From positions 1-34,368 of the IMG/VR virus record IMGVR_UViG_3300038312_000389: a stretch of DNA of 34,368 nt. The stretch is one strand, 5' to 3'. This DNA comes from a virus. Taxonomy: Duplodnaviria; Caudoviricetes. Under the pieces are notes generated by a model. That model searched no databases and was not told the origin of the DNA. It saw only the letters and a program-made list of their open reading frames with translations. Positions 1 through 31,424 of the stretch are shown one piece after another. A program made the position numbers and the translations under genes. Position 1 is the first letter of the stretch. Each line of letters opens with the position of its first letter.

Positions 1-1365
1 ATGAGCGTCTTTTTACGCAAGACCAGCAGCGGGGTAACCAAAGAGTATCATTATCAGTTCATGCAGTCAGGAAAGCGCCATTTTGGGGTTTGCGAGGGGT
101 GTACGACTGAAAAGGCGGCTAAAGATTATGAGGCGGAGCAAAAGCGCCATGTTAAAAACGCAGCGCGGGAAAAAAGCGTGGTCGCCATTTATGAAAACCG
201 GCGCAAGGAGTTGACCGGCGGACAGGATATCAAGCTGGTGGACGCGATGGAGTTAATGCTACTGAAACCCCACAAGCGCGACCGTTCGCAAAAAGTGATT
301 GATCAAAAACGGTCATTCTGGCGCGATTGGATGGCGTTCACGGCGGCGACCTATCCGGCGCTGGAAAACCTGCATGACGTATCCAGACAAGACGCCGAGG
401 CTTATATCGCCCATATCCAGCGATCCGGGCGTTTTGATAAGACAATCGAAATGACGGTCGGCATCCGGGGCGGGAAAACACGCAAGCGCACGATTGAGCG
501 TCAATACTATCTATCCAATCGGACGATTGTAAAAATCGGGCAGACGCTGAAAGAGGTTTTTGAACGCCTGAAAGCCGACGCCGGGTTGATCAATAATCCT
601 TTTGACGGCGTAGTGATGCCGGCGCAAAAGAGCACCAGCCGCGACGCTTTCAGCGACGACGATTTACGCGCCATCGCCAAACATATGACCATGCCCTATA
701 TCAAGCCGATATTCACTATTGGCCTATGTACCGGGTTGACCCTGGGCGATATCTGCTTGTTGCGGTGGGATGAAATCAATGACGGATGGATTGATAATAA
801 AAGGCGACGGAAAACCGGGGCCATGCTGGATATCCCGATCATGCCGCCGCTGGCCGCGCTTCTGGATGAGTTGAGCCAGGGTGAGCAGGGCGAATTTGTC
901 GCGCCGGAGCTGGCGAAAATGTACCAGCAAAATCCGTCCGGGGTGTATTATCGCGTCCGGAAATTTTTGGAGGGGATTGATATACAGACCACGATCCGCC
1001 CGGATATACCCGATTCCGCCGATCCGGCGAACGATAAAGGGGCTTTGCGGCGGCGGGCGATCGCGAATAAGGCGGCACACGCCATGCGCCATACGTTTGC
1101 TTATCTGGCCGGCGTGTATGAGGTCCCCTTGCCTATCGCCCAAAGTGTATTGGGCCATATGTCGCCTGAAATGACGAAACTGTACCAGCGCCACGCCAAC
1201 CGCGCGGACAAGGAGCGATTTTTCAGGCAGATGCCGGATATCCTTGGGAGCCCGGCGCGTCAAATCGCCGAGGTCGATCCGGAGCGGGCTGAATTGAAGC
1301 GCCTGGCGGACGAATTACCGCTCGAAACCGTCCGAAAGTTGCTCAAGGATTTCTGTTCGCCGTGA
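1..1365 (+). CDS. int: Tyrosine recombinase/integrase (first catalytic Arg appears replaced by Thr)
   Basis: N-terminal arm-binding-like region; TGLTLGDICLLRW (usually TGLR..D/E); RRKTG; HAMRHTF (HxxR); LGHMSPEMTKLY (H...Y). Confidence 0.93.
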   Translation: MSVFLRKTSSGVTKEYHYQFMQSGKRHFGVCEGCTTEKAAKDYEAEQKRHVKNAAREKSVVAIYENRRKELTGGQDIKLVDAMELMLLKPHKRDRSQKVIDQKRSFWRDWMAFTAATYPALENLHDVSRQDAEAYIAHIQRSGRFDKTIEMTVGIRGGKTRKRTIERQYYLSNRTIVKIGQTLKEVFERLKADAGLINNPFDGVVMPAQKSTSRDAFSDDDLRAIAKHMTMPYIKPIFTIGLCTGLTLGDICLLRWDEINDGWIDNKRRRKTGAMLDIPIMPPLAALLDELSQGEQGEFVAPELAKMYQQNPSGVYYRVRKFLEGIDIQTTIRPDIPDSADPANDKGALRRRAIANKAAHAMRHTFAYLAGVYEVPLPIAQSVLGHMSPEMTKLYQRHANRADKERFFRQMPDILGSPARQIAEVDPERAELKRLADELPLETVRKLLKDFCSP

Positions 1366-2494
1366 CACAAAATCTTTGCCGAAGTTTGATAAAAAGTTGC
1401 TCAAGGATTTCTGTTCGCCGTGACACAAAATCCTTGCGAAAGTCTAAGCAAAAGTTGCTCAAGGATTTCTGTAAAATTTGACACAAAATCTTCGGCAAGG
1501 TTTGACGTAAAGTTGACGAAAGATTTCTGTTCGCCGTGACACAAAATCTTCGGCAAGGTTTGACGTAAAGTTGGCGAAAGATTTCTGTAATTTTTCACAC
1601 AAATTCTTTGCCGAAGTTTGGCGTAAAGTTGGCGAAAGATTTCCGTAAAGCTTCACACAAATTCCTTGCGAAAGTCTAAGCAAAAGTTACTCAAGGATTT
1701 CTGTTCGCCGTGACACAAATTCTTTGCCGAAGTTTGGCGTAAAGTTGGCGAAAGATTTCCGTAAAGCTTCACACAAATTCCTTGCGAAAGTCTAAGCAAA
1801 AGTTACGCAAGGATTTCTGTTCGGCGTGACACAAATTCTTTGCCGAAGTCTGACGTAAAGTTGGCGAAAGATTTCTGTTTGCCGTGACACAAAATCTTCG
1901 GCAAGGTTTGACGTAAAGTTGGCGAAAGATTTCTGTTAAATTTGACACAAAATCTTGGGCGAAGTTTGATAAAAAGTTGCTCAAGGATTTCTATAATTTT
2001 TCACACAAATTCCTTGCTGAAGTTTGACGTAAAGTTGGCGAAAGATTTCTGTTAAATTTGACACAAAATCTTTGCCGAAGTTTGGTGAAAAGTTACGCAA
2101 GGATTTCTGTTCGCCGTGACACAAAATCTTTGCCGAAGTTTGGTGAAAAGTTACGCAAGGATTTCTGTTCGGCGTGACACAAATTCTTTGCCGAAGTTTG
2201 ATAAAAAGTTGCTCAAGGATTTCTGTTTGCCGTGACACAAAATCTTCGGCAAGGTTTGGTGGAAAGTTGACGAAAGATTTCTGTAATTTTTCACACAAAT
2301 TCTTTGCCGAAGTTTGGCGTAAAGTTGACGAGAGATTTCTGTTATCCGCGACACAAAATCTTCGGCAAGGTTTGGTGGAAAGTTGACGAAAGATTTCTGT
2401 TCGCCGTGACACAAAATATTGGGCGAAGTTTGACGTAAAGATCGTCACGGATTTCTATTGTCCGTGACGCAAATTCCTTGACGACGTTACTTCG
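1335..2494. repeat. Tandem array of 58-bp imperfect-palindromic units (19 full units plus 1 degenerate)
   Basis: AAAGTT recurs at 1335, 1393, 1451 ... 2379 at an exact 58-bp period with no indels; degenerate unit at 2437. Layout AAAGTT-N7-GATTTC-N11-ACACAAAWTC-N9-GTYT-N5. Confidence 0.97.
2443..2469 (-). terminator. Perfect 9-bp hairpin in the degenerate last array unit; possible terminator or processing site for the leftward operon
   Basis: CGTCACGGA (2443-2451) pairs with TCCGTGACG (2461-2469), just past the stop of 2487-2783. U-tract is weak. Confidence 0.35.
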
Positions 2495-2783
2495 CGGTAG
2501 TGGTTCCGGAGGTGTTCTTTTCTGCCGGTTTTGAGGAGGTCGTGTATTCTATTTTCCCGCTTCCGCTGCACTTTTTGCAAATATAAGCAGTCGATTTCCC
2601 GGCCTGTTTTGTTTTTCCTTTTCCTTGACAGACGGGGCAGTTCATTGTTTCTCTCACCTCACGCCTACCGGTTTTCGGGTCAACGACTACCCGGCTTGTC
2701 GGTTCTGCTTTTTTAGTGGTCAGGGATTGGGCGAACACCGGCGACAGCGCCAGCACGGCAACGATGATTAACAGGTTTTTCAT
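2487..2783 (-). CDS. Exported small protein with DnaJ-type zinc-finger motifs
   Basis: Signal peptide MKNLLIIVAVLALSPVFAQ; CPVCQGKG and CKKCSGSG; AGGAG RBS upstream. Confidence 0.8.
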   Translation of the reverse strand: MKNLLIIVAVLALSPVFAQSLTTKKAEPTSRVVVDPKTGRREVRETMNCPVCQGKGKTKQAGKSTAYICKKCSGSGKIEYTTSSKPAEKNTSGTTTAK

Positions 2784-2802: not shown

Positions 2803-3285
2803 TTATTCGGAAATCTCTTTTAAAAATGTTTCAATCTCACGGATCGGTATATTCAGCGTTTGGCACTTTTTAATCTTTGATGGTCCTGGATTTGCGCCGC
2901 AAACCAGATATTCCAAAACCCCCGATATGCTACTTTTCATAGAGATATCAAGGCATTCGCAGATATCAGCCAGAACACGTTTTTCGCTTGTGCCAAAGCC
3001 GGTAAAGCAGATGTTTTTCCCTCGAAAATAACATTCCCGCTTTATTTTATCCAACGCGGGGAACTGAATATCCTTTTGCTTCTCTACATTTGCGGGGCTT
3101 TGCCCGTAACCATCTTCACCCTCGCAATCAAAAGACCCAGTGTTAAGAGCATTCAGCATTTTACTGTACATCGCAGCCCGCCGCTTGTAGTCGTCATCTT
3201 CCATCGAACCACAATAACTGATCAAGGAATTCAGGAGATTAACGAGCTTTTCGGTATGCTTACGCAGGAAAAGATCATTATCCAT
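2803..3285 (-). CDS. BRCT-domain protein
   Basis: C-terminal FRGKNICFTGF...SISGVLEYLVCGANPGPSKIKKC..LNIPI matches the LigA-type BRCT pattern. Start overlaps the upstream stop (TAATG). Confidence 0.85.
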   Translation of the reverse strand: MDNDLFLRKHTEKLVNLLNSLISYCGSMEDDDYKRRAAMYSKMLNALNTGSFDCEGEDGYGQSPANVEKQKDIQFPALDKIKRECYFRGKNICFTGFGTSEKRVLADICECLDISMKSSISGVLEYLVCGANPGPSKIKKCQTLNIPIREIETFLKEISE

Positions 3286-4711: not shown

Positions 4712-5023
4712 ATGAAAAAGAATCGGGGCGATCTCGAATCTGGATTGGAAAACATGGTGGAACTGTTGGAGGGTGAAGTCAGGGGGCTTCAAGCGTTGAC
4801 GATGGAGGAACGCGGGCAATTGTTCACCGCGATCATGGAGTACAAGCCAACCGTTACCTACGTTAATTTCTCCTCGGCGGCGGTGGCGGTGGCATGGGGC
4901 TTCCTGGAGCCCCGCGTACGGCGGCAGAGCGAGCGCCGCGACCGGCAGAAAGAAGTAGCAAAAAACGCCGCCAGCGCCCGCTGGCATACTTTTAAAAAAC
5001 AAGGAGCAAAAAAATATGACTAA
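4712..5023 (+). CDS. DUF6291-like protein (resembles the N-terminus of phage replication initiators)
   Basis: LTMEERGQLFTAIMEY...KNAASARW parallels MTDKEAGALIKAIIAW...RQAAALKRW in 9673-10428. Confidence 0.6.
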   Translation: MKKNRGDLESGLENMVELLEGEVRGLQALTMEERGQLFTAIMEYKPTVTYVNFSSAAVAVAWGFLEPRVRRQSERRDRQKEVAKNAASARWHTFKKQGAKKYD

Positions 5024-7263: not shown

Positions 7264-7778
7264 AAATGAGAAAGTTTGAATGTATCGGGCGCTGTGAATT
7301 TAGCGATTGTGAAAAATGTCAAGCAGTATTGGGCGATGACATGGGGGAGCCATGCGAATGTTTGAAAGGCGGGAGACTCTTTCGTTGGATAGAGGTTAAA
7401 GAATCGGAACAGCTGCCTAGATTGACTGTTAAAGCTTTGAAGGAACGCGGCATCAGATGGCCTTCATGGGCTAAAGTTGCGGTTGTCTATAGGGATGGAA
7501 GTGGTGCATTCGGATCACACTCTGGAACTCTTGTACGGAATGTTAGTAGTGGTTGCTTCAGGGGAGTATCCAAAGATACTCGATGGATGGCGATTCCAGG
7601 TTTTGTATGGGATGCTACTGACTGGCAGAACAGTGTGGTCGATAAACCCGCTGATGCCGAACAGGAACTGCCGAAATGGTGCAAGGTCCTGTCCCTGCCA
7701 GGCGTTCAGCAGCGCCGGCAAGCAAAAAGGATTCGACGACGAACGCGACCTGTGGCCGGTGTTCGCCGGACTCATTAA
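7254..7778 (+). CDS. Hypothetical Cys-rich protein, probably 3'-truncated and fused at ~7686
   Basis: Plausible protein up to ELPKWCKV; the remainder is out-of-frame read-through of methyltransferase DNA. Confidence 0.55.
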   Translation: MEMKMRKFECIGRCEFSDCEKCQAVLGDDMGEPCECLKGGRLFRWIEVKESEQLPRLTVKALKERGIRWPSWAKVAVVYRDGSGAFGSHSGTLVRNVSSGCFRGVSKDTRWMAIPGFVWDATDWQNSVVDKPADAEQELPKWCKVLSLPGVQQRRQAKRIRRRTRPVAGVRRTH

Positions 7779-8758
7779 AGAGTGCCGACCTGAATACGTT
7801 TTTGGCGAACAGGTTGAAAACGCAATTAAGCACGGTTGGCTCGATCGAGTATACGCGGACTTGGAAAGAGAAAACTACGCCGTCGGGGCGGTCGTACTGG
7901 GCGCACACAGCGTCGGAGCACCGCACCGTCGCCAAAGATTGTATTGGGGGGCCGCAGTACTGGCCGACCGTGACATTGAATTGCGTGACGGGGCCGGGTT
8001 CGCAGGGGCGCGAGGGCGGAGCGAATCTACAGACGGCGGCGATACTGGCGGCATGGGGAACTCCGCGAGTCACAACGAATGGCGGGATTCCATGTCTGGA
8101 GCATACCGGGAAAGGTTCGAGGATCGAGGATCAGGCGGCAACGGCGGGATGGTTGACACCGAGGGCGTCGGAAACAACAGAAGATCAGGAGAAATTCGCA
8201 AAGAGGAACAACAGGAGTTCCACGAAATGCGGGAATCTTCAGTCGATGGCGATGGCGTTTGCAGCGTGGCCGACACCGGACTGTTCGGACCGGCGCTCAA
8301 TGAACAGCAGGCAGCAGGGGACGTCGAACACAGCGCAAATGGAGGCGTGCCCAACACCGCAAACAATGGACAAAATGGGGATTGTCAGGATGCCGGAAGA
8401 TCGTTCAGAGGCGGCCAGGATGGGAGGATGCGCAAATTTAAGGGAGAAGGTGATACTTTCGGCATGGCCGACGATATTGTCATCGGAATGCAGGCAGGGA
8501 TTTCAGGACCGGACGAGAGGGAAAAAGGGCTCGCAGGAGAGTCTTTCGACTGTGGTGTTCCAGGTTTTTCTCCCTGGGACGGATTCCGGCTCATCTATTG
8601 CCGGGACGGAAAAGTTAGAAGGATACCGGCTAAATCCTTACTTTTCGGCATGGCTGATGGGGTTTCCGAAAGCGTGGATGGAGGCGGGCTTGTCGGCATA
8701 TCGGAAACGGGCGGCTTCCCGCTCACCACGCAAAAGGAAGGCCGTGCCATGCTCCTGA
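7676..8758 (+). CDS. Overlapping-frame methyltransferase beta subunit (tandem WPTP modules plus motif IX); true start uncertain
   Basis: 360 open codons nested in the alpha gene; six W/C-x-T-P/V/I modules; C-terminal RLNPYFSAWLMGFPKAW is motif IX-like and absent from the alpha frame. Confidence 0.75.
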   Translation: MVQGPVPARRSAAPASKKDSTTNATCGRCSPDSLKSADLNTFLANRLKTQLSTVGSIEYTRTWKEKTTPSGRSYWAHTASEHRTVAKDCIGGPQYWPTVTLNCVTGPGSQGREGGANLQTAAILAAWGTPRVTTNGGIPCLEHTGKGSRIEDQAATAGWLTPRASETTEDQEKFAKRNNRSSTKCGNLQSMAMAFAAWPTPDCSDRRSMNSRQQGTSNTAQMEACPTPQTMDKMGIVRMPEDRSEAARMGGCANLREKVILSAWPTILSSECRQGFQDRTRGKKGSQESLSTVVFQVFLPGTDSGSSIAGTEKLEGYRLNPYFSAWLMGFPKAWMEAGLSAYRKRAASRSPRKRKAVPCS

Positions 8759-8856
8759 AAGGCTATGGAAACGCGATCGTACCGCAGGTAGCGGCAGAGT
8801 TTGTCATGGCGTTCGCGGAAGCTCTTGAGGATGCCAGTATTAATAAACTTAAATAA
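7688..8856 (+). pseudogene. C5-cytosine DNA methyltransferase alpha subunit lacking motifs I-III (5'-truncated)
   Basis: Motif IV SCPCQAFS, VI GEQV, VIII HRRQRLYW, X GYGNAIVPQVA. No FxGxG SAM-binding motif seen upstream in the ORF translations. Confidence 0.8.
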
Positions 8857-9672: not shown

Positions 9673-10428
9673 ATGAGCAAAAAGCAAATAGGGATATTGA
9701 TCGCGCCTGATTGGGACGCGGCTTTTTTGTCCATGACGGACAAGGAGGCGGGTGCCTTGATCAAGGCAATTATCGCATGGAAAAACGGCACGGAAAACGC
9801 GGCGGAACTGCCACGCGCCGCCGCGCCGATCTTTCCACTGTTGATCGCGCAGCAGGAGCGGAACCTTGAAAAGTACAGGGATATCTGCGAAAAACGCCAG
9901 GCGGCGGCGTTGAAACGGTGGGAAAAAGATCAAAACAAGGAAAAATCCGAGCTGGACAATGCGGAAAAATCCAATAGCAACGCAAACAACCAGCAAACCA
10001 ATGCAAATGATATGCAATTGCATCCAAATGGTATGCAAATGGAACCTAATCGTAATCGTAATCGTAATCGTAATCGTAATGTATCTAAAGATACAATATT
10101 ATTATCTGATTTTGAGAAAATCAGTGTTTTTGATAAAATTAAACTGGGATTGAATGACTTTTTCCGGCGCAAGGAATCGACGCCATGGACGGATAAGGAA
10201 TTGGGGAAGCTGGCGAAAGTCGCCAAGCGCCCCGAAGCCCTGAAAGAATCCAGAGCGATTTTAGGACATTACCGGGGCGGTTATGAGTACCACTACAAAG
10301 CCATCGAAACGTTGCTCAATAACTGGACCACCGCTTGCGATCGCGCCAGCGCGGCGGGGTTCACCGGCGAAGCTGGCGAAACTGGAAGCATCGCGGGGCA
10401 CTCTCCCGATGCGGACTATGGACTTTAA
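9673..10428 (+). CDS. Phage replication initiator (DUF6291-like N-terminus)
   Basis: N-terminal helical motif, N/Q-rich linker with (NR)5, directly upstream of a DnaC-like ATPase. Confidence 0.8.
   Translation: MSKKQIGILIAPDWDAAFLSMTDKEAGALIKAIIAWKNGTENAAELPRAAAPIFPLLIAQQERNLEKYRDICEKRQAAALKRWEKDQNKEKSELDNAEKSNSNANNQQTNANDMQLHPNGMQMEPNRNRNRNRNRNVSKDTILLSDFEKISVFDKIKLGLNDFFRRKESTPWTDKELGKLAKVAKRPEALKESRAILGHYRGGYEYHYKAIETLLNNWTTACDRASAAGFTGEAGETGSIAGHSPDADYGL
10047..10080 (+). repeat. (TAATCG)5 microsatellite in the initiator linker; candidate origin region
   Basis: Five perfect hexamers plus a partial copy, followed by an AT-rich stretch (10081-10145). Confidence 0.8.
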
Positions 10429-11187: not shown

Positions 11188-11191
11188 CGAT

Positions 11192-11989
11192 ATGGGAACG
11201 AAGACACGGTTTGTGACGCCGGAGGAACTCAATAAATTTATCAGGGTTATCAATAATCCCCCTGAAAAGATGTTGATTTACGCGGCATTCGCGGCGGTCG
11301 TGATCGGCACCGGCGCAAGATGGACGGAAGTTGCCGACATGACCTTTGATGACCTTTTCGATCAAGACTGGACCCCCCGAAAAAAAGTAAGTCGAATGCT
11401 GGCGAAGAAGCGCAGGAAAAAAAGCAAAGGGAAGATCGTATTGGATTTCCTCGCAAACAATTGGGATGTGACTGCCAAAATGAAAGTTTCGGATGTATTC
11501 ACCCCTGCCGGGGAAATAAAGATTGACTACACCGGAAAGACGACCGAGAGCCGCCCCGGCAAAAAAAAGGAAATTGAATTCCCCTGGAGCATGTTGGGCG
11601 CTCCCATTATCGCATGGAAAGACAAGGCCATTGAAAAATATCACTTCAACCATAGCCACCGGATATTCAGTTTGCACTATGACAACCATAAACTGTCGCA
11701 TGGAAACTCTTATTTAAAAAACCGTCGTCTATTGAGACTGGCGGGTGTTGATTGGCGCCGGGTGGCGTTTCACGGTTGGCGAACAACGTTCCTCGTTATG
11801 GTTTACGAACAATGCAAACGCAACGGAATGGGGGACTTCGAAGCAGCGAATCAGGTAAAAGAAATGATCGGACATGAAAGCCTCGACACGTTGACGGAAT
11901 ACCTGAAAGAATACATCGGACAGGATTCCGGAAATATTATCATCGGCGCGTTTGAAAATGCGTTCCGCAATGCGCGCGCGGGAAAGTAG
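11192..11989 (+). CDS. Second tyrosine recombinase (catalytic domain only)
   Basis: GTGARWTEV (R), FHGWRTTF (HxxR), IGHESLDTLTEY (H...Y); ATG 11192 after GGGGTG. Confidence 0.85.
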   Translation: MGTKTRFVTPEELNKFIRVINNPPEKMLIYAAFAAVVIGTGARWTEVADMTFDDLFDQDWTPRKKVSRMLAKKRRKKSKGKIVLDFLANNWDVTAKMKVSDVFTPAGEIKIDYTGKTTESRPGKKKEIEFPWSMLGAPIIAWKDKAIEKYHFNHSHRIFSLHYDNHKLSHGNSYLKNRRLLRLAGVDWRRVAFHGWRTTFLVMVYEQCKRNGMGDFEAANQVKEMIGHESLDTLTEYLKEYIGQDSGNIIIGAFENAFRNARAGK

Positions 11990-27966: not shown

Positions 27967-30210
27967 ATGATTTATAGAGTAAACAACCAGACAAAAAAGT
28001 TCGCGAAATGGTCGGAAATCCCGGTCTTTTTCGCGGCGCAGATCGCGCCTTACACGTTTCGCTTTGCGGACGAATGCGGCAAGCCGCTGGCGATGGACGC
28101 CGCCGATCAGTTTTACCTGGTCGCGGATATCGATTTTAAGCGCCAGACCGAGGCGGCGGTGCCTAAAACGTTGGCGCTGGCGGCGGATATCGACGCGGAA
28201 ACCGGCACAGTTACATTCCGCCTGAACACCGCCGGGGCGCGCTACCTCGAAACAATCAAACAGGCCGGAACGCTGCTGAAAACCGAAATCCGGCGCTTGC
28301 CATTCGGCGGCGCCTCGTGGGAGGTGCTGTTGCAGGATGGCGCCACCGGCAACCCCGATGTGATCGATCCTATGACGCCGGTACCGGAGCCTCAAGATAA
28401 TTATGTGCGGTCAATAAACGATTTGTCCGGAAATGTTGTTTTTATTGATAGCGAGGGGAATATACTTGAAGTTGTTGATGGTAAAATAAAAATGCCAAGA
28501 GTTGCTGGCCCTGCCGGTGCGGCCGGAGCCAAGGGTGACAAGGGCGATCCCGGTGAGCCCGGCGCTGATGGCGCGGACGGCGCGAAAGGTGACAAGGGCG
28601 ACAAGGGCGATCCCGGTGAACCCGGCGCAGACGGTGCCAAGGGCGACAAAGGCGATCCCGGTGAGCCCGGCGCTGACGGCCAGGACGGCGCACAAGGCCC
28701 GCCCGGGGCCGATGGCGCGGACGGTGCGGACGGCCAGGATGGCCCGAAAGGCGACAAAGGCGACAAAGGCGATCCCGGCGAGCCCGGCGCTGACGGCCAG
28801 GACGGCGCACAAGGCCCGCCCGGGGCCGATGGTGCGGACGGTGCCAAAGGCGACAAGGGCGACAAGGGCGATCCCGGTGAGCCCGGCGCTGATGGTGCAG
28901 ACGGTGCCAAGGGCGACAAAGGCGATCCCGGTGAGCCCGGCGAGCCCGGCGCCGATGGCGCGGACGGCGCGGATGGCGCGAAAGGTGACAAGGGCGACAA
29001 GGGCGACAAAGGCGAACCCGGTGAGCCCGGCGCGGACGGCCAGGACGGCGCACAAGGCCCGCCCGGGGCCGATGGCGCGGATGGCGCGAAAGGTGACAAG
29101 GGCGACAAGGGCGACAAAGGCGATCCCGGTGAGCCCGGTGCGAAAGGCGACAAGGGCGACAAGGGCGATCCCGGTGAACCCGGTGAGCCCGGCGCGAAAG
29201 GCGACAAGGGTGATCCCGGCGAGCCCGGCGCAGACGGTGCAGACGGTGCCAAGGGCGACAAAGGCGATCCCGGTGAGCCCGGCGCAGACGGCGCGGATGG
29301 CGCGGACGGCCAGGATGGCCCGAAAGGCGACAAGGGCGATCCCGGTGAGCCCGGTGCGGACGGCGCAGATGGCGCACAAGGCCCACCCGGGGCCGATGGT
29401 GCGGACGGTGCCAAAGGCGACAAGGGCGACAAGGGCGATCCCGGTGAGCCCGGCGCGGACGGCGCGAAGGGCGACAAGGGCGACAAGGGCGATCCCGGTG
29501 AGCCCGGTGCGGACGGCGGCGGCATCCCGGATGCCCCGACTGACGGCAAAACCTATGGTCGAAAAGACGGTGACTGGAGCGAGGTTACTGGTCTAGAAGC
29601 GGGTGACTACAGCTTTACCAGCGCGGCGGTCATTGATCGCGAGCTGACGATCCCGGACACGCGCCCGGTTGTCGCGGTGATCGATGAATCTGGACGGCAG
29701 TATCCGTTTGCGTTGGATGAGGTGGTTTACAAATCGGCGACCACGGAAATCAGTCTGGCGGCGATCATGACGTATCGCAATCTGACCGCTATTCCCGGCA
29801 CTTGGCGAATCGTTTTCGCGGTCGGTCAAAAAGGTACAGACGGTGAAGATTTCGCCCCTGACGAGCGGGGAACACTTGCCGAACGCACCCAATACGACGG
29901 CGAAGCAAAGGGCTTTTCCTATCTCGATATCGACACAGGGGTCATTTATCATAAATTGAGCGCGACAAACGGCGACTGGAACGATGGATTCAGCCTGCGC
30001 GGTGACAAAGGCGATCCCGGTGAGCCCGGTGCGGACGGCGCAGATGGCGCACAAGGCCCACCCGGGGCCGATGGTGCGGACGGTGCCAAAGGCGACAAGG
30101 GCGACAAGGGCGACAAGGGCGATCCCGGTGAGCCCGGTTCAGTCAATGTTATCGTTAGTCTGACCGAACCGCAAAACCCAACTGACGGTATGATCTGGAT
30201 ACAGGAGTAA
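27967..30210 (+). CDS. Collagen-like fibre protein with a fibritin foldon-like motif
   Basis: About 112 Gly-X-Y triplets (28507-29514), then GIPDAPTDGKTYGRKDGDWSEV, and a second short collagen tract (30001-30137). Confidence 0.92.
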   Translation: MIYRVNNQTKKFAKWSEIPVFFAAQIAPYTFRFADECGKPLAMDAADQFYLVADIDFKRQTEAAVPKTLALAADIDAETGTVTFRLNTAGARYLETIKQAGTLLKTEIRRLPFGGASWEVLLQDGATGNPDVIDPMTPVPEPQDNYVRSINDLSGNVVFIDSEGNILEVVDGKIKMPRVAGPAGAAGAKGDKGDPGEPGADGADGAKGDKGDKGDPGEPGADGAKGDKGDPGEPGADGQDGAQGPPGADGADGADGQDGPKGDKGDKGDPGEPGADGQDGAQGPPGADGADGAKGDKGDKGDPGEPGADGADGAKGDKGDPGEPGEPGADGADGADGAKGDKGDKGDKGEPGEPGADGQDGAQGPPGADGADGAKGDKGDKGDKGDPGEPGAKGDKGDKGDPGEPGEPGAKGDKGDPGEPGADGADGAKGDKGDPGEPGADGADGADGQDGPKGDKGDPGEPGADGADGAQGPPGADGADGAKGDKGDKGDPGEPGADGAKGDKGDKGDPGEPGADGGGIPDAPTDGKTYGRKDGDWSEVTGLEAGDYSFTSAAVIDRELTIPDTRPVVAVIDESGRQYPFALDEVVYKSATTEISLAAIMTYRNLTAIPGTWRIVFAVGQKGTDGEDFAPDERGTLAERTQYDGEAKGFSYLDIDTGVIYHKLSATNGDWNDGFSLRGDKGDPGEPGADGADGAQGPPGADGADGAKGDKGDKGDKGDPGEPGSVNVIVSLTEPQNPTDGMIWIQE
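28507..29514 (+). repeat. Collagen-coding 9-bp-unit repeat mosaic (GAD, GAK, GDK, GDP, GEP, GQD, GAQ, GPP)
   Basis: Seen directly; the ~29326-29450 block is near-identically repeated at 30001-30137. Confidence 0.95.
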
Positions 30211-30215
30211 CGGCG

Positions 30216-31424
30216 ATGGCGGTAAAAGTATACAAAAATGAAGCATGGCATCCACTCGCAGGGCAGAAAATACGCGTCGGTAATCAATGGAAAACCATAA
30301 ATGACACTGACCGGTTTTATTATAATGGACAATGGTACGAAATTGGTGAATTCATGGAGAGGCAATATCTCTATGCGTGCGGCTATAGCGGTCGCGGTCA
30401 ACTCGGTCTCGACTATACCGAAACCAGCAACGTATTCACCCGTGTAGGTACCGCGTCAAATTGGGCGAAAGCCTCAGCAGGACAGTACCACACCCTTGCG
30501 ATCAATAGCGACGGGGAATTGTACGCGTGCGGCTTTGGCGATTACGGCCAACTCGGTCTCGGAGATTCAAGTAATCGAAACACACTGACCCGTGTAGGTA
30601 CCGCGTCAAATTGGGTACAAGTCTCAGGCGGGGGAGAACATACCCTGGCGATCAATAGCGACGGGGAGCTGTATGCGTGTGGCCGTAATAATAGCGGTCA
30701 ACTCGGTCTTGGCGACGAAAGTAATCGAAACACACTGACCCGTGTCGGTACCGCATCAAATTGGGTACAAGTCTCCGCAGGGTTTAGGCACACTCTTGCG
30801 CTTAATAGCGCAGGGGAGCTATATGCGTGCGGTTATAACGTTGACGGCCGGCTCGGTCTTGGCGACAAAAATAATCGAGACACACTGACCCGTGTAGGTA
30901 CCGCGTCAAATTGGGTACAAGTCTCAGCCGGGCGGCTCCATACTCTTGCGCTTAATAGTGAAGGGGAACTGTATGCGTGCGGTTATAACGTTGACGGCCA
31001 ACTCGGTCTTGGTGATTCACCTGACCACAGTAGCTTAACCCGTGTTAGCACCGCGTCAAACTGGACGCAAGTCGCAGCAGGGTATTACCACACCCTTGCG
31101 CTTAATAGCGCAAGGGAGCTGTATGCGTGCGGCTTGAACACTATCGGACAGCTCGGTCTTGGCGACAAAAATAATCGAGACACACTGACCCGTGTAGGCA
31201 CCGCGTCAAATTGGGCGAAAGTCGCAGCCGGGTATGGGCACACCCTGGCGATCAATAGCGACGGGGAGCTGTATGCGTGCGGCTATAACGGTAGCGGTCA
31301 ACTCGGTCTTGGCGACGAAAGTAATCGAAACACACTGACCCGTGTCGGAATCGCTTCAAATTGGATACAAGTCTCAGCAGGACAGGTCCATACCCTGGCG
31401 ATTCATAAAATTGAGGAGACTTAA
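30216..31424 (+). CDS. RCC1-repeat seven-bladed beta-propeller, probable receptor-binding protein
   Basis: Seven 50-aa repeats at an exact 150-bp period: LYACGxxxxGQLGLG...TRVGTASNWxxVSAGxxHTLA. Confidence 0.93.
   Translation: MAVKVYKNEAWHPLAGQKIRVGNQWKTINDTDRFYYNGQWYEIGEFMERQYLYACGYSGRGQLGLDYTETSNVFTRVGTASNWAKASAGQYHTLAINSDGELYACGFGDYGQLGLGDSSNRNTLTRVGTASNWVQVSGGGEHTLAINSDGELYACGRNNSGQLGLGDESNRNTLTRVGTASNWVQVSAGFRHTLALNSAGELYACGYNVDGRLGLGDKNNRDTLTRVGTASNWVQVSAGRLHTLALNSEGELYACGYNVDGQLGLGDSPDHSSLTRVSTASNWTQVAAGYYHTLALNSARELYACGLNTIGQLGLGDKNNRDTLTRVGTASNWAKVAAGYGHTLAINSDGELYACGYNGSGQLGLGDESNRNTLTRVGIASNWIQVSAGQVHTLAIHKIEET

Follow-up and report, generated by a model that had tools for sequence, protein, structure and literature searches.

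Minisatellites (VNTRs) consist of head-to-tail units of tens of bases in which variant units are interspersed, with a unit order that differs between strains and with exchange in register. Sub-repeats of 9-12 nt grouped into higher-order units are found in iteron- and centromere-type arrays, including the origin repeats in phage replication genes, and REP/BIME elements are imperfect palindromes located between convergent genes. In the R64 shufflon, vlsE and pilS/pilE, interchangeable in-frame C-terminal segments are stored behind an expressed gene.

PMC4383910 describes tRNA-targeting tyrosine integrases of prophages and genomic islands that sit beside a tRNA gene or its displaced 3' fragment. 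The tandem arrays described in its passages on these integrases consist of entire islands, and every island carries an integrase and a tRNA fragment. The integrase studied here resembles those integrases in being next to a tRNA or tRNA fragment, whereas its array is made up of short non-coding repeats behind the gene and not of entire islands. No description of such an array was found in the titles and abstract openings of the open-licence literature.

The DNA analysed (the window) is a single virus record of 34,368 bases, in which integrase, repressor-like, replication, terminase, portal and capsid genes were identified. An earlier note on this DNA had put forward a candidate recombinase-array system behind the integrase gene. 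The recombinase-array reading was found to be mostly unsupported; instead of a new system of recombination, the array is likely to be a repeat that varies.

Structure of the array

The array and the genes at either end of it are as follows:

1..1365, plus strand: tyrosine integrase of 454 aa (PF00589; PHROG integrase; 169 homologues) of a tRNA-targeting family in Lentisphaeria
1335..1365, plus strand: first 31 nt of unit 1, containing integrase codons 446-454 and the stop codon
1335..2488, no strand assigned: tandem 58-bp array of 19 units and a divergent 52-bp 20th, with five ~11.6-nt sub-repeats per unit
2437..2489, no strand assigned: unit 20, a divergent allele class that contains the stop codon of the convergent gene
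2487..2783, minus strand: convergent ORF of 98 aa with CxxCxGxG-type motifs and weak Pfam matches below cut-off

TRF placed the array at 1335-2488 with a period of 58, 19.9 copies, 76% matches, 0% indels and a score of 915. This result, together with cutting of the units in register, bears out the earlier description of 19 units and a degenerate 20th at an exact 58-bp period without indels. The four constant blocks in that description were recovered, AAAGTT, GATTTC and GTYT in 19/19 units and ACACAAAWTC in 18/19, and the listed alleles of the variable blocks V1 to V4 were also present, with units 6 and 8 the sole identical pair. All 20 units have the same orientation. The array does run between two convergent stop codons, but the statement that it fills the gap between them needs correction, as it overlaps both genes, with the integrase stop codon within unit 1 and the convergent stop codon within unit 20.

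The mean pairwise identity of the units is 0.77 (units differ by ~23%), and 28 of the 58 alignment columns are invariant. This number is close to the neutral expectation, which is 28.4 under evenly spread substitutions (p 0.66) and 25.4 when derived from 48 tree steps, and the invariant columns are only marginally clustered (runs test p 0.04). One multi-base allele jump is explained by an inversion, as two V3 alleles differ by 1 mismatch when one of them is inverted and by 4 when they are compared directly. Unit 20 represents a divergent allele class and not simple decay; similar alleles occur in the arrays of runs X2, X3 and X4, which come from three further studies.

A five-fold sub-period of 11.6 nt was detected in the unit (Fourier peak at 58/5, p 5e-5, family-wise 0.001). 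Five A-tracts start at unit positions 2, 11, 23, 35 and 47, all in the integrase frame, and this frame breaks solely at the unit junction, where the preceding codon is a stop in 12/19 units. An imperfect dyad flanks the 8-bp centre of the unit (p 0.008) and may be a by-product of semi-palindromic sub-repeats. A coding tandem repeat was rejected, as each of the six frames contains 7-21 stops across the array and the best frame gave p 0.037, the other five being non-significant. A frameshift reading of the array was also rejected. A 155-aa shadow ORF in the coding-repeat reading matched only itself and two unrelated repeat proteins.

No close homologue was found for the convergent 98-aa ORF. It is probably a neighbour and not part of the array system, because in X3 one array end (a loose end at 2063) passes into a different flanking sequence.

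Distribution of the array

The last 827 bases of the array were found at 100% identity at a single locus in the genome G001. A pattern search of G001 gave 19 matches, of which 14 lie in the array and the other five carry 1-2 mismatches; two that were profile-scored were at background, and no solo units were found in this genome. In another assembly (contigs L134 and L128), the array is letter-identical and the contig breaks inside it; this may be the same strain, so the match tests the assembly only. In runs X2, X3 and X4, the unit is present in other orders and with some new alleles. The contigs of these runs are short and none spans the array, and 6/6 joints listed between units are multiples of 58 in the same register. 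An assembly artefact and a dispersed host repeat had both been raised beforehand as explanations, and neither is upheld given the single locus in G001, the identical second assembly and the variants in other runs. The array is real.

A physical link to this integrase lineage is supported by an X3 contig in which the end of a ~91%-identical integrase continues into units 1-2. More distant homologues gave a different result. Of 98 homologue loci that were fetched, 96 matched again, and in 83 the sequence extended for 600 or more bases past the stop codon (at least one contig is counted twice); none of the 83 (best 54% identical) has the unit or a comparable adjacent array. The expectation that arrays would follow homologous integrases thus holds for the nearest relatives, as in the ~91% end in X3, but not for the 83 loci at 54% identity or below.

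The strict array pattern gave no matches among viral contigs, and a loose two-unit pattern gave nine loci, none homologous. Among metagenome contigs nine loci were found, two being the array itself and seven being single matches without an array. In a sample of the phylum, 2/401 genomes matched, namely G001 and one with a chance match inside a gene, and 1/351 genomes matched in a class-level sample. No array was found in annotated phages and plasmids. The array is unusual and, in the collections searched, of narrow distribution.

Exchange between units

V4 was found to be linked to the V1 of the following unit (permutation p 1e-4), as the earlier note had claimed, and V3 is linked to V4 (p 0.0025). 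Free re-assortment of V2, also claimed, was not borne out, as V2 is linked to the A/T column on its right (p 0.008), with p 0.06 for V2-V3 and p 0.12 for V1-V2. Four-gamete conflicts were found between all block pairs and across all four constant blocks, with 16/42 conflicting column pairs for V3-V4 and 15/36 for V4 and the next V1. These conflicts and the joints in other runs agree with the claim that blocks are re-assorted at fixed length. The same allele can be present as many as 8 times, and alleles can be lined up in series of single steps.

Allele association drops smoothly with distance, from 0.66 to 0.28, as expected for homology-driven exchange. Across the two blocks beside the centre of the unit it seems somewhat lower, at 0.34 and 0.41, against 0.56 and 0.48 across the other two at equal distance. 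This slight dip would be the one trace of a central hotspot; confinement of crossovers to the central dyad is otherwise unsupported, given the conflicts across every constant block and the smooth decay.

Overlap with the integrase gene and proposed origin of the unit

The C-terminal end of the integrase is a small two-helix domain (predicted helices 427-438 and 441-452; AlphaFold mean pLDDT 85). The stop codon occupies positions 29-31 of unit 1, and unit positions 2-19 encode residues 446-451, within the predicted last helix. The first six unit codons match the profile of 119 homologues (p 0.0012; p 0.013 for nine codons), and D450 and C452 deviate from the family pattern. When registers were ranked by helical hydrophobic moment, that of the integrase was 2nd of 116, the first being the same stretch on the opposite strand. 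The helix signal extends over codons 1-17 (p 0.003) and includes codons 11-17, which lie past today's stop codon (p 0.03). The best match to the family profile is given by units 6 and 8, which lack a stop over 17 codons.

In the X3 contig that carries the related integrase end, the last two integrase residues would read Lys-Val, against Ser-Pro here, and the same allele was seen on other X3 array contigs (read by hand). Because this tail allele recurs there, unit 1 likely participates in the exchange, the last residues of the integrase changing as a side effect.

We propose, with moderate confidence, that the array is a strain-variable 58-bp repeat that likely grew by amplification of the last ~17 codons and stop codon of the integrase gene and was likely reshuffled by ordinary in-register recombination without a dedicated enzyme. 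A 58-bp segment spanning the stop codon would have been duplicated, the copies would then have accumulated point changes and one or more short inversions, and the alleles would have been mixed by exchange between misaligned units. The pattern of A-tracts and T-tracts and the loose dyad would follow from an amphipathic helix in which codons for Lys/Glu and for hydrophobic residues take turns. The 11.6-nt sub-period is consistent with the codons of such a helix, and the unit would be a copy of an older, longer gene end. The parts of this model that are directly supported are the overlap, the codon fit, the re-assortment and the different orders in other studies. An origin from the gene end is favoured because the unit codons match the terminal helix of the family and the helix signal continues past the stop codon; alternatively, the array could have overwritten the gene end.

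At residue 247 of the integrase, the usual place of the first catalytic Arg of tyrosine recombinases after Thr-Gly-Leu, the 119 homologues have Ser (78), Thr (32), Arg (6) or Ala (3), so that this Arg is mostly absent there in the family. R214 is invariant in the family and might stand in for it. Intact att sites beside many family members suggest that these integrases are active.

Possible constraint on unit spacing

In neutral DNA with A/T runs, a few indels are expected for a substitution number such as that seen here, and tandem repeats tend to collapse. No indels were found across the 20 units against ~48 substitution steps, the register is kept, and ~1.1 kb of repeat persists in the runs of four studies. 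All three observations count against a neutral minisatellite, and a constraint on spacing is hinted at most strongly by the complete absence of indels. It is therefore conceivable, though rather improbable, that an array of the same origin is now kept by selection as a fixed-geometry row of binding sites (iteron- or centromere-like, with ~11.6-bp boxes) for a phage or host DNA-binding protein. The register kept in all runs and the strong five-fold sub-period are consistent with such a role, as are the 38 differences shown in other runs, of which only 4 fall on the 28 invariant columns (12 rows lie outside this count, and the differences are non-independent because alleles are common to the runs). 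Short repeats are also common in the linkers of DUF6291 replication genes of related prophages in Lentisphaeria, where 13/23 linkers were significant against 8/85 control windows. However, no site matching the unit was found elsewhere in the window, in the repressor region, in the attL arms or in the phage's own replication gene, and the array shares no 5-mers with the replication-gene linkers (p 0.77). No partition gene was found among the ORFs scanned (25 by Pfam and 23 by PHROGs, of 134 listed overlapping ORFs), and no LexA scored above cut-off in G001. A LexA-box reading was rejected on this last result, obtained with the query used; a near-match site in contig C31 of G001 belongs to a dyad unrelated to the array, with a score no higher than background.

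Units as possible alternative integrase tails

All units are in frame with the gene end, giving hypothetical tails of 7 to 40 residues (mostly 7-17), and unit 1 differs between the window and X3. The prophage might thus hold ~20 silent in-frame versions of the last helix that are swapped into the gene by in-register exchange with unit 1, so that the recombinase would diversify its own C-terminal domain. This tuning of the two-helix domain would perhaps alter activity or the pairing with rival integrases in the same cell, and seven family-like integrase matches were found in G001. A silent library of this type is nevertheless unlikely. Synonymous changes are slightly in excess in the integrase frame (11, where 6.4 are expected; p 0.037 with 19 units and p 0.11 with all 20), but one inversion accounts for part of this, and random mutants match the family profile as well as the 21 variant codons do (p 0.16). 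In addition, Leu448 is replaced by Ala, Thr or Arg in 13/19 units, and the integrase family manages without an array.

tRNA genes and the attachment site

In G001, the window's integrase begins ~155 nt downstream of an intact tRNA-Pro, and an 88%-identical sister integrase begins behind a reversed tRNA-Arg 3' half. The other prophage end is absent from G001. A tRNA or tRNA 3' half was located within 500 nt upstream in 45 of the 80 homologues with enough upstream DNA, and the tRNA fragments beside family integrases begin at or near the anticodon arm. The array does not match the core of its own tRNA-Pro (p 0.83). Judged from these sequences, the attachment site is tRNA-derived and upstream of the gene, which is the usual pattern of tRNA-targeting integrases, and the array would for this reason not be the attachment site.

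The family (L002-L091) targets many different tRNAs, and a motif of the GAGC/GTGC type is frequent in the flank on the phage side, ~20 nt ahead of the anticodon loop. The two integrase alleles in G001 (L100:1267-1914 by tRNA-Pro and L101:1310-1948 by the tRNA-Arg half) differ in the first ~610 nt and have the middle in common. Upstream of each allele lies a separate pair of direct repeats with 11-bp spacing, which may be arm sites. Contig L134 links the Arg-type start to the array but may be a chimeric assembly, because in run X1 the second allele leaves the sequence at 827.

The earlier note had suggested a library of recombination sites or a record of recombination events. In this reading, the integrase or a second tyrosine recombinase (11189-11989) would bind or act on the units as sites of recombination or mimics of att, and the array would serve as a library, a decoy or an event record. 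In addition to the dyad around the 8-bp centre and the mild dip in linkage beside it, a stretch of ~43 nt across the boundary between units 8 and 9 can be aligned with the tRNA-Arg 3' half that precedes the sister integrase, and this half ranked first of 55-56 family tRNA halves (column-permuted p 0.008). However, this was one of seven regions tried (~0.06 corrected), and four gaps are needed over the whole unit. The likeness is independent of the natural allele order (p 0.22), and unit likeness was significant neither to the own tRNA-Pro (p 0.12) nor to tRNAs generally (p 0.82). A tRNA-derived origin of the unit is thus a weak lead. As the attachment site appears to be the upstream tRNA here and in the 45 homologues, breakpoints are not confined to the centre and no solo unit was found in G001, the library is not supported, and a role of the units as sites or mimics is unlikely.

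The remaining suggestion, an array of multi-segment RNAs that would be cut into ~58-nt products and act as guides, antitoxin mimics or decoys, is very improbable: the array lies in sense direction behind the integrase gene with no terminator-like site found, so co-transcription would be possible, but unit folding z-scores average only -0.6 to -1.1, block shuffling leaves the folding of the arrays no worse than in their natural form (30 and 32 of 60), V1 and V3 are not complementary within units (p 0.43; p 0.04 for V3 with the next V1), no Rfam match comes near the gathering score, and the variable blocks recur and differ by single steps and are not unique spacers.

Other genes in the window

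The second tyrosine recombinase gene is short and lies directly before HNH and terminase genes. Matches to it were found in 6/351 genomes of the class, some again beside HNH and terminase genes, and no such array was present in five fetched regions around these matches. Two DUF6291 proteins are encoded, a short one (4712-5023) and a full replication-type gene (9673-10428) with ~11-nt repeats at 9960-10050. A 160-aa protein (2803-3285, minus strand) is encoded between the array and the repressor, and its C-terminal half, which matches the end of NAD-dependent DNA ligase families, is likely a BRCT-type domain. The DNA methyltransferase region contains two long overlapping ORFs (7477-8856 and 7676-8758), possibly a split or two-frame gene, and the tail region (27967-31424) encodes a collagen-like repeat protein and an RCC1-repeat protein.

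Implications

On the best reading, the array shows clearly how a long row of variant repeats can grow in nature out of the end of a gene, here in a phage from a phylum that has received little study, and it doubles as a strain marker. It also serves as a warning that constant and variable blocks with a dyad can arise from helix codons and ordinary recombination. If the array, which has no indels and is kept across four studies, is under selection, it would be an undescribed cis element or an integrase tail-swapping device, of interest to the study and engineering of recombinases.

Comparison with known systems

An integron cassette array (or CALIN) was rejected, as there is no cargo between the units and folding is weak. 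A CRISPR- or TIGR-type guide array was rejected because the spacers are not unique, with alleles that recur up to 8 times, and no effector of such a family was found among the 25 ORFs searched with Pfam and 23 with PHROGs (of 134 listed overlapping ORFs).

REP/BIME elements are similar in being imperfect palindromes between convergent genes, but the array has weak hairpins and is confined to one locus in G001, where dispersed copies are absent and 14/19 pattern matches lie in the array itself. Iteron- and centromere-type arrays share the short sub-repeats within higher-order units; the array differs from them in lying outside the replication gene, in its 20 copies and in having no match to its own replication gene. 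Replication-origin iterons were therefore rejected, the array being 7 kb from the initiator gene with p 0.78 against the repeats in the window's own replication gene.

As in shufflons and silent cassettes, in-frame C-terminal segments are located behind a gene. Here, however, the segments are direct and not invertible, all 20 units having one orientation, which excludes a shufflon; the tails are mostly 7-17 residues, and the gene that would be altered is that of the recombinase itself. Selection on the stored variants is not supported by the comparison with random mutants (p 0.16). An att or core-site array would have inverted arms round a 6-8-bp spacer, which the imperfect dyad resembles, but the unit does not appear to be the att site and exchange is not confined to spacer edges.

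The closest likeness is to a minisatellite with variant repeats, in the many head-to-tail 58-bp units, in the re-assorted variant units, seen as four-gamete conflicts and decay with distance, and in the order polymorphism between strains (runs X2, X3 and X4). What sets the array apart from a minisatellite is the match of its unit to a recombinase gene's 3' end, the coding role of unit 1, and a divergence of ~23% between units with no indel. The array has the tested features of a variant-repeat minisatellite and lacks defining features of att arrays, integrons, guide arrays, REP/BIME, shufflons and origin iterons.
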